A stretch of DNA of 64,000 bases, taken from NCBI RefSeq assembly GCF_988243305.1, contig NZ_OZ547136.1; one strand, written 5' to 3'. A program made the position numbers and the translations under genes. Below the pieces are notes generated by a model. The model was not told where the DNA came from and did not search any database. It was given only the letters and a program-made list of their open reading frames with translations. This document shows, one piece after another, positions 59,551-60,311 of this stretch; the first letter of the stretch is position 1; each line of letters starts with the position of its first letter.

Positions 59551-60264
59551 TTAGTTGAATTTAATATCAGCAATCAATTTTTTGATATAATCTTCTGGTT
59601 TCATCTTTGTTTTTTCTTTTATTTGCTGATAAGTTTCTTTCTTAATGTTGATTTCAATTGTTTTATTTTTATTGATAATGCACGCAATTGGTAATAGTAG
59701 CAATAATGTAATAATTATAATTATAAGAATTATTTTTGAATTTCCATGTGAGTCCGATTCCTTCATTTTTTGGAATATTCTTCTCATGACTGGATTAACT
59801 GCTGAAGAAAACATAATCATAATGATAAAAACAGCCAAAAAATCTAATGTATATTTTGCGTAGTAACTTTCAGTATTCATCTCAAAAAACAGCAACCACG
59901 CCAGAGCACAAAACAATGTCATGCCAAAACATATAAATGAAATAATAAAGCCAATTTGTTGCGTTCTTTTATCTAGTTCAGAGAGAAATTTCTCACCAAC
60001 TCTTTGACCTTTATAAGGTGAAATAAGTGTGTGGGCGGCATTGAAAAATACATTTGTGCAAATCAAAACAAAGAATATATTGATTGGCATAAATCCTATA
60101 AGTGTATAAAAGAAGAAGTCTTGTTGAAGATAGTACGGTAATTGATTATCAACTTCCATTAACAATGTAAATATAAAACCGAAAGAAACATAAAAAAACA
60201 AACCTTCTTCACGTAATTTTTTAATGTATTTTTTGAATTTAAAATCTTTAATCATCTTCAGCAT
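59551..60264 (-). CDS. hypothetical polytopic membrane protein, strongly AT-rich (orphan)
   Basis: 237-aa ORF with agga RBS; basic N-terminal region (MLKMIKDFKFKKYIKKLREEG) then several hydrophobic helices; composition far more AT-rich than flanking yjiS and hsdR. Confidence 0.65.
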   Translation of the reverse strand: MLKMIKDFKFKKYIKKLREEGLFFYVSFGFIFTLLMEVDNQLPYYLQQDFFFYTLIGFMPINIFFVLICTNVFFNAAHTLISPYKGQRVGEKFLSELDKRTQQIGFIISFICFGMTLFCALAWLLFFEMNTESYYAKYTLDFLAVFIIMIMFSSAVNPVMRRIFQKMKESDSHGNSKIILIIIIITLLLLLPIACIINKNKTIEINIKKETYQQIKEKTKMKPEDYIKKLIADIKFN

Positions 60265-60280
60265 AGCTATTCCTAATTGT

Positions 60281-60311
60281 AAACAATATGGCCGGGGTAG
60301 AAAGTGCGACC
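60281..60311. terminator. hairpin between hsdR stop and the membrane-protein gene
   Basis: Stem gccggggt / accccggc with 10-nt loop; weak U-tract, so function as terminator or processing site is uncertain. Confidence 0.3.

Follow-up and report, generated by a model that had tools for sequence, protein, structure and literature searches.

An AT-rich gene beside a Type ID hsdR within Escherichia's immigration control region encodes a predicted five-helix membrane protein with a ribbon-helix-helix-like tail

The gene described here lies on the minus strand at 59551-60264 of a 64,000-nucleotide stretch of contig NZ_OZ547136.1 (assembly GCF_988243305.1; the window from here on), between yjiS and hsdR, in the region known as the immigration control region (ICR). 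Its 237-aa open reading frame (ORF), its ribosome-binding site and its annotation agree, and it is a genuine and intact gene. The product is very probably a five-helix protein of the inner membrane, belonging to a small uncharacterised family that shows an unusual predicted domain combination and sits in a well-studied locus. Sequence comparison shows that the ORF occupies, at the yjiS edge of the ICR, the position that STM4522 has in Salmonella. We propose that this gene encodes a membrane dimer with a ribbon-helix-helix (RHH)-like tail in the periplasm and a role at the envelope, and to this explanation as a whole we give a probability of about 0.5. The gene is divided as follows:

59551-60264, minus strand: ORF for the AT-rich inner-membrane protein of 237 aa, with the stop codon at 59551-59553 and the ATG at 60262-60264
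60205-60264, minus strand: codons 1-20, basic N-terminal segment with 8 lysine or arginine residues, predicted cytoplasmic
59671-60204, minus strand: codons 21-198, membrane domain with five predicted transmembrane (TM) helices (hydropathy, charge, AlphaFold2, conservation, invariant columns)
59554-59670, minus strand: codons 199-237, conserved C-terminal strand-helix-helix tail, predicted to form an RHH-like dimer

The ribosome-binding site AGGAA is found at 60270-60274, 5 nt 5' of the ATG, and at the equivalent site of E. coli GF60 RefSeq annotates a 714-bp coding sequence (CDS) as 'hypothetical protein'. Upstream and on the same strand lies hsdR (60329-63592, stop codon at 60329-60331), and yjiS (59311-59475, plus strand) is convergent with the ORF on the other side. 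The ORF has a GC content of 27.2% (GC3 27.3%) versus 50.1% for hsdR and 55.1% for yjiR, and the 714-bp stretch of lowest GC in the whole window coincides with it (minimum 0.2675, start 59539, z = -3.3). In this sense, the initial annotation, which had described an AT-rich gene directly 3' of hsdR, on the same strand, past a hairpin and within the ICR, agrees with what we found, the spacer being of 64 nt. Its extent of 59551-60311 holds for the gene only up to 60264, and 60265-60311 correspond to spacer and hairpin.

The TM helices are predicted at about residues 21-38, 53-80, 104-127, 141-160 and 178-198. Five hydrophobic segments are present in every homologue examined, in agreement with the membrane protein with a basic N-terminus that had been read from the sequence at first. 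The AlphaFold2 monomer (mean predicted local distance difference test score, pLDDT, of 66, a low confidence) has five long helices and then two short C-terminal ones, and the basic N-terminal segment, which is poorly conserved, is modelled as a helical extension of TM1. Across eight homologues, the N-terminus, loop 2-3 and loop 4-5 contain 17-21 lysine or arginine residues in most cases and 11-13 in two, and the remaining two loops contain 1-3; loop 1-2 is acidic, with 0-1 of these residues, and loop 3-4 is very short. According to the positive-inside rule, the N-terminus would be cytoplasmic and the C-terminal tail would lie outside the cytoplasm in all eight. The motifs LPYYLQQ in loop 1-2 and ESYYAKY (YY.KY) in loop 3-4 are conserved on the predicted out-facing side. 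Region conservation, expressed as a BLOSUM sum-of-pairs score, reaches 2.25 for loop 1-2, 1.42 for loop 3-4 and 1.92 for the tail, and is 0.45, 0.99 and -0.10 for the segments predicted to face inward. Charge distribution and conservation suggest that the working face of the protein, including the tail, is directed toward the periplasm, and we consider it likely that the tail is outside the cytoplasm.

The tail follows the pattern TIEINI, KETYQQIKEKT, a turn and PEDYIKKLI, with TIEINI, KETYQQIKEKT and PEDYIKKLIADI as conserved motifs. It is near-invariant within Escherichia and recognisable at 23% overall identity, reading TIKLD..TYEKLMELSG..PEEYL in the most distant branch of the family. An alternating strand followed by two helices is the pattern of an RHH protein. 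We aligned tail-(GGS)6-tail constructs of 11 homologues and modelled the first row with AlphaFold2. The model has the beta-alpha-alpha layout twice, with a two-stranded antiparallel ribbon in the dimer and pLDDT values of about 90 outside the linker. We therefore describe the tail as RHH-like, a fold prediction in which we have moderate confidence.

Relatives of the protein are few. Phmmer found ten among 1.84 billion representative proteins and a profile search with hmmsearch found 15, with E-values of 1e-19 to 1e-95 and lengths of 215-247 aa, and genome loci with a relative occur in 2 of 100,044 species representative genomes. The family is restricted to a few Enterobacteriaceae. Overall, homologue identity ranges from 23 to 95%, and the homologues at 23-42% retain the length and the helix pattern. 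'Orphan', as the gene had been called, was thus too strong a word, since a small family exists that includes Salmonella STM4522. All its members have 26-34% GC within flanks of 42-60% GC, and AT-richness therefore characterises the family stably and does not mark the gene as a newcomer to this strain.

The Salmonella member was found by tblastn on a contig of Salmonella Infantis, as a 233-aa homologue with 29% GC between symE (STM4523) and yjiS (STM4521); it shares 37% identity with the window protein over 229 aa (BLASTP E 4e-53), and its record cross-references it to the LT2 locus tag STM4522. The slot convergent with yjiS is common to Salmonella, with its Type IA hsdRMS and symE, and to the Type ID minority of E. 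coli, and homologues convergent with yjiS are present in the window, in E. fergusonii and in S. Infantis. Because this slot is shared with STM4522, the ORF looks like an old resident of the ICR edge and not like a recent insertion. Between the window and S. Infantis, identity goes from 90% for YjiN to 56% for YjiS and 37% for the membrane protein, so that divergence climbs steeply toward the variable region. Other members have different surroundings. The homologues of Pseudocitrobacter, of S. diarizonae and of a metagenomic contig (L003) lie beside an aldehyde dehydrogenase gene. In Pseudocitrobacter faecalis and in locus L005 the homologue comes after symE, with a Type IA system next to it. 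The type strain of S. diarizonae has it after symE in a locus with zero hsd genes, and in L003 it comes after a putative mrr remnant. The ICR of this S. diarizonae strain (CCUG 30040T, with the member at L010 about 9989-10691) has an AraC-type regulator and a LysE-type gene instead of hsd. The L003 contig, whose homologue has 40% identity, contains repetitive extragenic palindrome (REP)-like repeats (…CCCTGTGGGAGAGGGCCGGGGTGAGG…, twice) at 1-90, and at 101-310, directly upstream of the membrane gene, a 69-codon remnant that by eye resembles the C-terminus of Mrr.

A distant branch, at 23-25% identity, consists of a protein named as from Enterobacter bugandensis and a contig labelled Pantoea agglomerans. 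In this branch, a conserved acidic protein of 148-149 aa is encoded upstream on the same strand (L011 9053-9499; L012 9293-9742; L007 814-1260). It has no Pfam match, and a GFA-domain gene that overlaps the start of the membrane gene sometimes intervenes. The 148-149-aa protein could be a partner gene product; on reading both translations, with no formal comparison made, it bears no evident resemblance to SymE.

Within E. coli, the ORF was found in 114 of 5,426 complete genomes, in each case in the chromosome and next to a type I R subunit, and it is missing from about 98% of them. The 3' half of this hsdR is likewise present in 114 complete genomes, and the ORF and the Type ID hsd cassette are physically linked in every complete genome that has either (114/114). 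The order of the cassette is yjiS, ORF, hsdR, hsdS, hsdM (781 aa), a GmrSD-type DUF262/DUF1524 gene, Fic, BrnA and yjiA, a composition that agrees with one ICR form, Type ID/GmrSD/brnAT, in the 2025 EcoSal review (PMC12707154). As a side observation, this HsdM (L001 17399-19744; L004 2957-5302; L016 2337-4682) exceeds by roughly 250 aa the HsdM of the Type IA loci in our dataset, which has 529 aa. In E. coli genomes without the ORF, homology to the window ends with the yjiS stop codon, whose last base is 59475, so that the ORF and the hairpin 3' of it are part of the variable cassette.

Outside E. coli, the HsdR family extends to Citrobacter, Salmonella, Erwinia, Vibrio, Shewanella and others at 77-90% identity, and the ICR of Citrobacter portucalensis and of S. 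enterica holds the same hsdM(781)-hsdS-hsdR cassette without the membrane gene; tblastn detected no remnant of the ORF 3' of the Type ID hsdR in Citrobacter and Salmonella. A restriction subunit would be expected wherever its system occurs, and this is not what we found, as Type ID cassettes elsewhere lack the gene and relatives of it stand beside Type IA systems or with no hsd at all. Judged from these sequence comparisons, then, the membrane protein is an independent accessory gene product and not a restriction subunit. The initial annotation had supposed that the gene was acquired separately. That holds in the deep sense of a module distinct from the restriction system, and it fails for the recent history of E. 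coli, where ORF and cassette coincide in number (114 and 114 genomes) and ORF and hsdR have a similar dS of about 0.2.

Two hairpins flank the gene:

60265-60328, minus strand: spacer of 64 nt from hsdR to the ORF, in which the hsdR stop codon is immediately followed by a GC-rich hairpin (60291-60316) and then by AGGAA at 60270-60274
59513-59546, no strand assigned: inverted repeat that separates the 3' ends of two convergent genes, the ORF and yjiS, and folds on both strands

The spacer hairpin has an 8-bp GC-rich stem (centroid -16.1 and minimum free energy -18.8 kcal/mol, z -2.3) and is kept in five other Escherichia alleles. In the same way, every ICR-branch member of the family lies directly behind the terminal hairpin of its upstream gene. 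The inverted repeat, kept in six alleles, folds at -18.8 kcal/mol on the minus strand (z -4.1) and at -21.8 on the plus strand (z -5.5). Since it folds on both strands, it is probably a transcript-end hairpin shared by the ORF and yjiS, and it falls inside the variable cassette because homology to the ORF-less genomes stops before it. A promoter scan of 59100-60900 gave no sigma-70 consensus promoter on the minus strand, and an Rfam scan of 59000-60600 gave only sub-threshold noise. Read-through transcription from hsdR into the ORF is possible. As AT-rich DNA is a general target of H-NS, the strongly AT-rich sequence makes silencing by this protein, and low expression in laboratory culture, likely.

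From these features a mode of action may be drawn. The five-helix protein would dimerise through its RHH-like tails and probably work as a membrane dimer, with a conserved face formed by loop 1-2, loop 3-4 and the tail that would point to the periplasm. As the tail and the conserved loops are predicted to face that compartment, the protein would act at the outer face of the inner membrane, where it may bind or block something that arrives from the periplasmic side, such as the delivery of phage DNA, entry by conjugation or a toxin that targets membranes. Its role would be of the exclusion or immunity type rather than enzymatic, of transport, or of a cytoplasmic trigger that kills. This is our best guess, and a tentative one; it draws on where the gene lies, on how deeply it has diverged at a fixed position and on the lack of an enzymatic or transport signature. 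A more specific version, in which the ICR has a dimeric membrane barrier whose periplasmic RHH-like module contacts DNA on its way in, or the phage or conjugative apparatus that brings it, seems to us rather improbable; there, the divergent alleles (37% identity) may be kept by the same diversifying pressure as the hsd families.

Several observations weigh against the proposed periplasmic RHH-like dimer and its envelope role, beginning with the structure. The topology rests on the positive-inside rule and on the low-confidence monomer model, and the RHH call on an artificial tail-linker-tail fusion and an alignment of 11 rows. A Foldseek search of the tail model gave its top matches non-significant E-values, of 0.36 and above. 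No RHH sequence profile appears among the Pfam matches at E <= 10 for the query or any of the 11 members, nor does any RHH protein in the PDB profile searches with the full-length and tail profiles; the PDB sequence searches with these profiles gave nothing meaningful. Moreover, we know of no precedent for an RHH fold outside the cytoplasm, and a literature search on membrane-anchored RHH proteins found nothing relevant. A different reading is a membrane-tethered transcription regulator whose tail would be cytoplasmic, bind DNA (for example ICR operators) and be controlled by the membrane domain. The modelled dimer does resemble the DNA-binding proteins TraY, AvtR and Arc, and the exposed residues of its strand are polar (T, E, N, K, S). 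Yet the positive-inside rule puts the tail outside in 8 of 8 homologues, the reversed orientation would expose 11-21 lysine or arginine residues on short stretches in the periplasm, most homologues have a tail without net charge, RHH sequence profiles do not match it, and no repeated operator-like sequence was noticed within the short flanks. We regard this regulator as improbable.

As regards function, PADLOC-DB v2 defence-protein hidden Markov models gave 0 families at E <= 1, and copies of the gene are absent from 50,697 phage records and 72,556 plasmid records. Pfam (query and all 11 members), NCBIfam and PHROGs yielded no family match, at most weak, composition-driven membrane matches, and Foldseek of the full-length model against AFDB50 retrieved only family members and uncharacterised proteins. 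In addition, the distant branch does not share the ICR-edge position of the ICR-branch members, its gene being placed between tqsA and mmuP-mmuM-tauABCD, a metabolic and non-defence neighbourhood. The initial annotation had noted a fit to membrane-acting abortive-infection effectors, adding that nothing proved a defence role. In such a reading, the protein would be an effector or toxin that depolarises or permeabilises the inner membrane upon phage infection or a signal from the restriction system. A small polytopic membrane protein in an ICR defence island, beside hsdR and near GmrSD and BrnA, would fit such an effector. So would the deep divergence between genera at the same locus (37% versus 90% for YjiN), as conflict genes often diverge deeply between genera, and one of the 11 family members has a Pfam match to SieB (PF14163) at E 1e-3. 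This last value is consistent with a composition-driven match, and the query has no SieB match at E <= 10. Besides the searches above, none of which backs a defence reading, there is no sensor domain and no partner gene, the Type ID system exists elsewhere without the membrane gene, and the conserved surface seems to face outward, away from the cytoplasm. An abortive-infection effector is therefore unlikely, and a defence role in general is speculation, with the location as the sole evidence either way.

Some of the same evidence bears on a further candidate, an orphan immunity protein that would counter a membrane-targeting bacteriocin or a contact-delivered effector, by analogy with the inner-membrane proteins that give immunity to pore-forming colicins. 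The small size, the polytopic form in the inner membrane, a conserved surface predicted to face outward, AT-richness that persists family-wide and rapid sequence divergence at a fixed locus would suit it. However, the protein has no homology to any immunity family and no toxin gene lies nearby, and we give this possibility a low probability.

The gene itself must also be considered. Pairwise Nei-Gojobori comparison of four Escherichia alleles (window, GF60, E. fergusonii and E69) gave dN/dS (nonsynonymous to synonymous rate) values of 0.17-0.32 for the membrane gene versus 0.06-0.08 for the adjacent hsdR. The dS was about 0.17-0.24, the same as for hsdR, in all pairs except the near-identical window and GF60. 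Selection on the membrane gene is therefore purifying, though relaxed, and its divergence has gone along with that of the cassette. The decaying members count here against the envelope role: the S. diarizonae copy is frameshifted and the member P0011 has a deletion of TM4. A third, P0014, is truncated, and together the three amount to decay in the Salmonella-type branch. One may then ask whether the gene is a passenger, without function or in decay, which the ICR cassette carries along as an AT-rich leftover and which linkage alone preserves. Its absence from most complete E. coli genomes, these damaged copies and a dN/dS 3-4 times that of hsdR would agree with it. Against it, the dN/dS is well below 1, the four Escherichia alleles examined at the DNA level have intact frames of 235-237 codons, the two RefSeq loci inspected are intact CDSs in the annotation of the Prokaryotic Genome Annotation Pipeline (PGAP), and the tail is conserved as described above. 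A passenger is, in our view, quite unlikely.

A last alternative comes from a label. PGAP names WP_000916454.1 of E. coli SK1402 (L015 9416-10129) 'MFS transporter', the other alleles being 'hypothetical protein', and accordingly the protein would be a housekeeping or MFS-type solute transporter. Besides the product name, the weak and composition-driven Pfam matches of the query, MscS_TM (E 5e-4), DUF898 (E 7e-4) and MFS_1 (E 1.3), could be cited for it. However, MFS proteins have about 400 aa and 12 helices versus the 237 aa and five helices found here, no NCBIfam family comes near its cutoff, the fold search recovered only family members and uncharacterised proteins, and the gene is not a core gene. 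Homology to a housekeeping transporter had been named at the outset as what would refute the defence reading; an MFS_1 E-value of 1.3 offers no such homology. Helix count, length and profile scores effectively refute the MFS identity, which we rejected as extremely improbable, and the label has the look of a misannotation with the potential to propagate.

Other observations in the window concern two further AT-rich genes and a split gene. Between mdtM and yjiR, an Rpn-family (Transposase_31) gene is divided into two ORFs on the plus strand (56522-57103 and 57231-57479). Its equivalents are annotated as two pseudogene fragments in GF60 and are intact, with ~306-314 aa, in SK1402 and E. fergusonii. 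A second AT-rich island, with a minimum GC of about 0.31, corresponds to a 720-aa ORF at 48722-50884 (minus strand); its positional match in GF60 is a 'pentapeptide repeat-containing protein' (L001 1188-3278), and SK1402 lacks it, with yjiK abutting ytiA. Finally, an AT-rich ORF of 276 aa (34778-35608, minus strand, minimum GC about 0.30) lies between UxuR-like and IraD-like genes, at a position that we take to be that of yjiC in K-12.

The ICR is a classic defence island of enteric bacteria, whose nucleases and toxin-antitoxin modules have been catalogued. Should incoming DNA, phage or bacteriocins be what the membrane protein acts on at the envelope, this region would gain a layer that is not a nuclease, and a polytopic membrane domain joined to an RHH-like module would receive its first function. 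If the protein has no such role, it stands as a caution that location in a defence island together with AT-richness is weak evidence for defence, since the same family is also found in a metabolic neighbourhood. The gene is not mentioned in the recent review of the ICR (PMC12707154). In Salmonella, YjiS, the DUF1127 product of the convergent neighbour, was reported to be a peripheral protein of the inner membrane on its cytoplasmic side, perhaps attached by way of integral membrane proteins, in a paper that makes no mention of the adjacent membrane gene (PMC11707872). A link between YjiS and the membrane protein may be a lead.

Compared with known systems, the closest is STM4522 itself, an uncharacterised 'inner membrane protein', with homology over the full length (233 versus 237 aa), the same five-helix pattern and C-terminal motif, a similarly AT-rich gene (29% GC) and an identical place at the ICR edge, convergent with yjiS. 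It differs in its upstream neighbour, symE beside a Type IA hsdRMS there and a Type ID hsdR here, and its identity to the window protein is very low for an Escherichia-Salmonella pair. A literature search on STM4520-4522 and on WP_000916454 found no papers in the library searched. With the Type ID cassette, the membrane gene shares the strand of hsdR, a position 64 nt downstream of it and a similar dS; unlike the cassette, it has 27% GC versus 50%, and HsdR is found across Gammaproteobacteria whereas the membrane family is confined to few Enterobacteriaceae. The likeness to RHH proteins (the Arc/MetJ/CopG superfamily, with TraY, AvtR, single-chain Arc and VirC2 as single-chain examples) is in the predicted fold only. 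In contrast to them, the tail is fused to a five-helix membrane domain, lacks sequence-profile similarity and is predicted outside the cytoplasm, out of reach of chromosomal DNA. Colicin immunity proteins resemble it by analogy and not by homology, and the same applies to the exclusion proteins SieB of P22, Imm of T4 and TraS of F. These proteins of the inner membrane are small and counter incoming DNA at the envelope, and the gene described here would be comparable as a membrane gene in a locus devoted to the control of foreign DNA. It departs from them in that the query has no detectable homology to them and in that it is chromosomal, not borne by a phage or a plasmid. If the reading as an ICR barrier were true, it would represent the first extracytoplasmic use of an RHH module and a new class of chromosomal exclusion protein.

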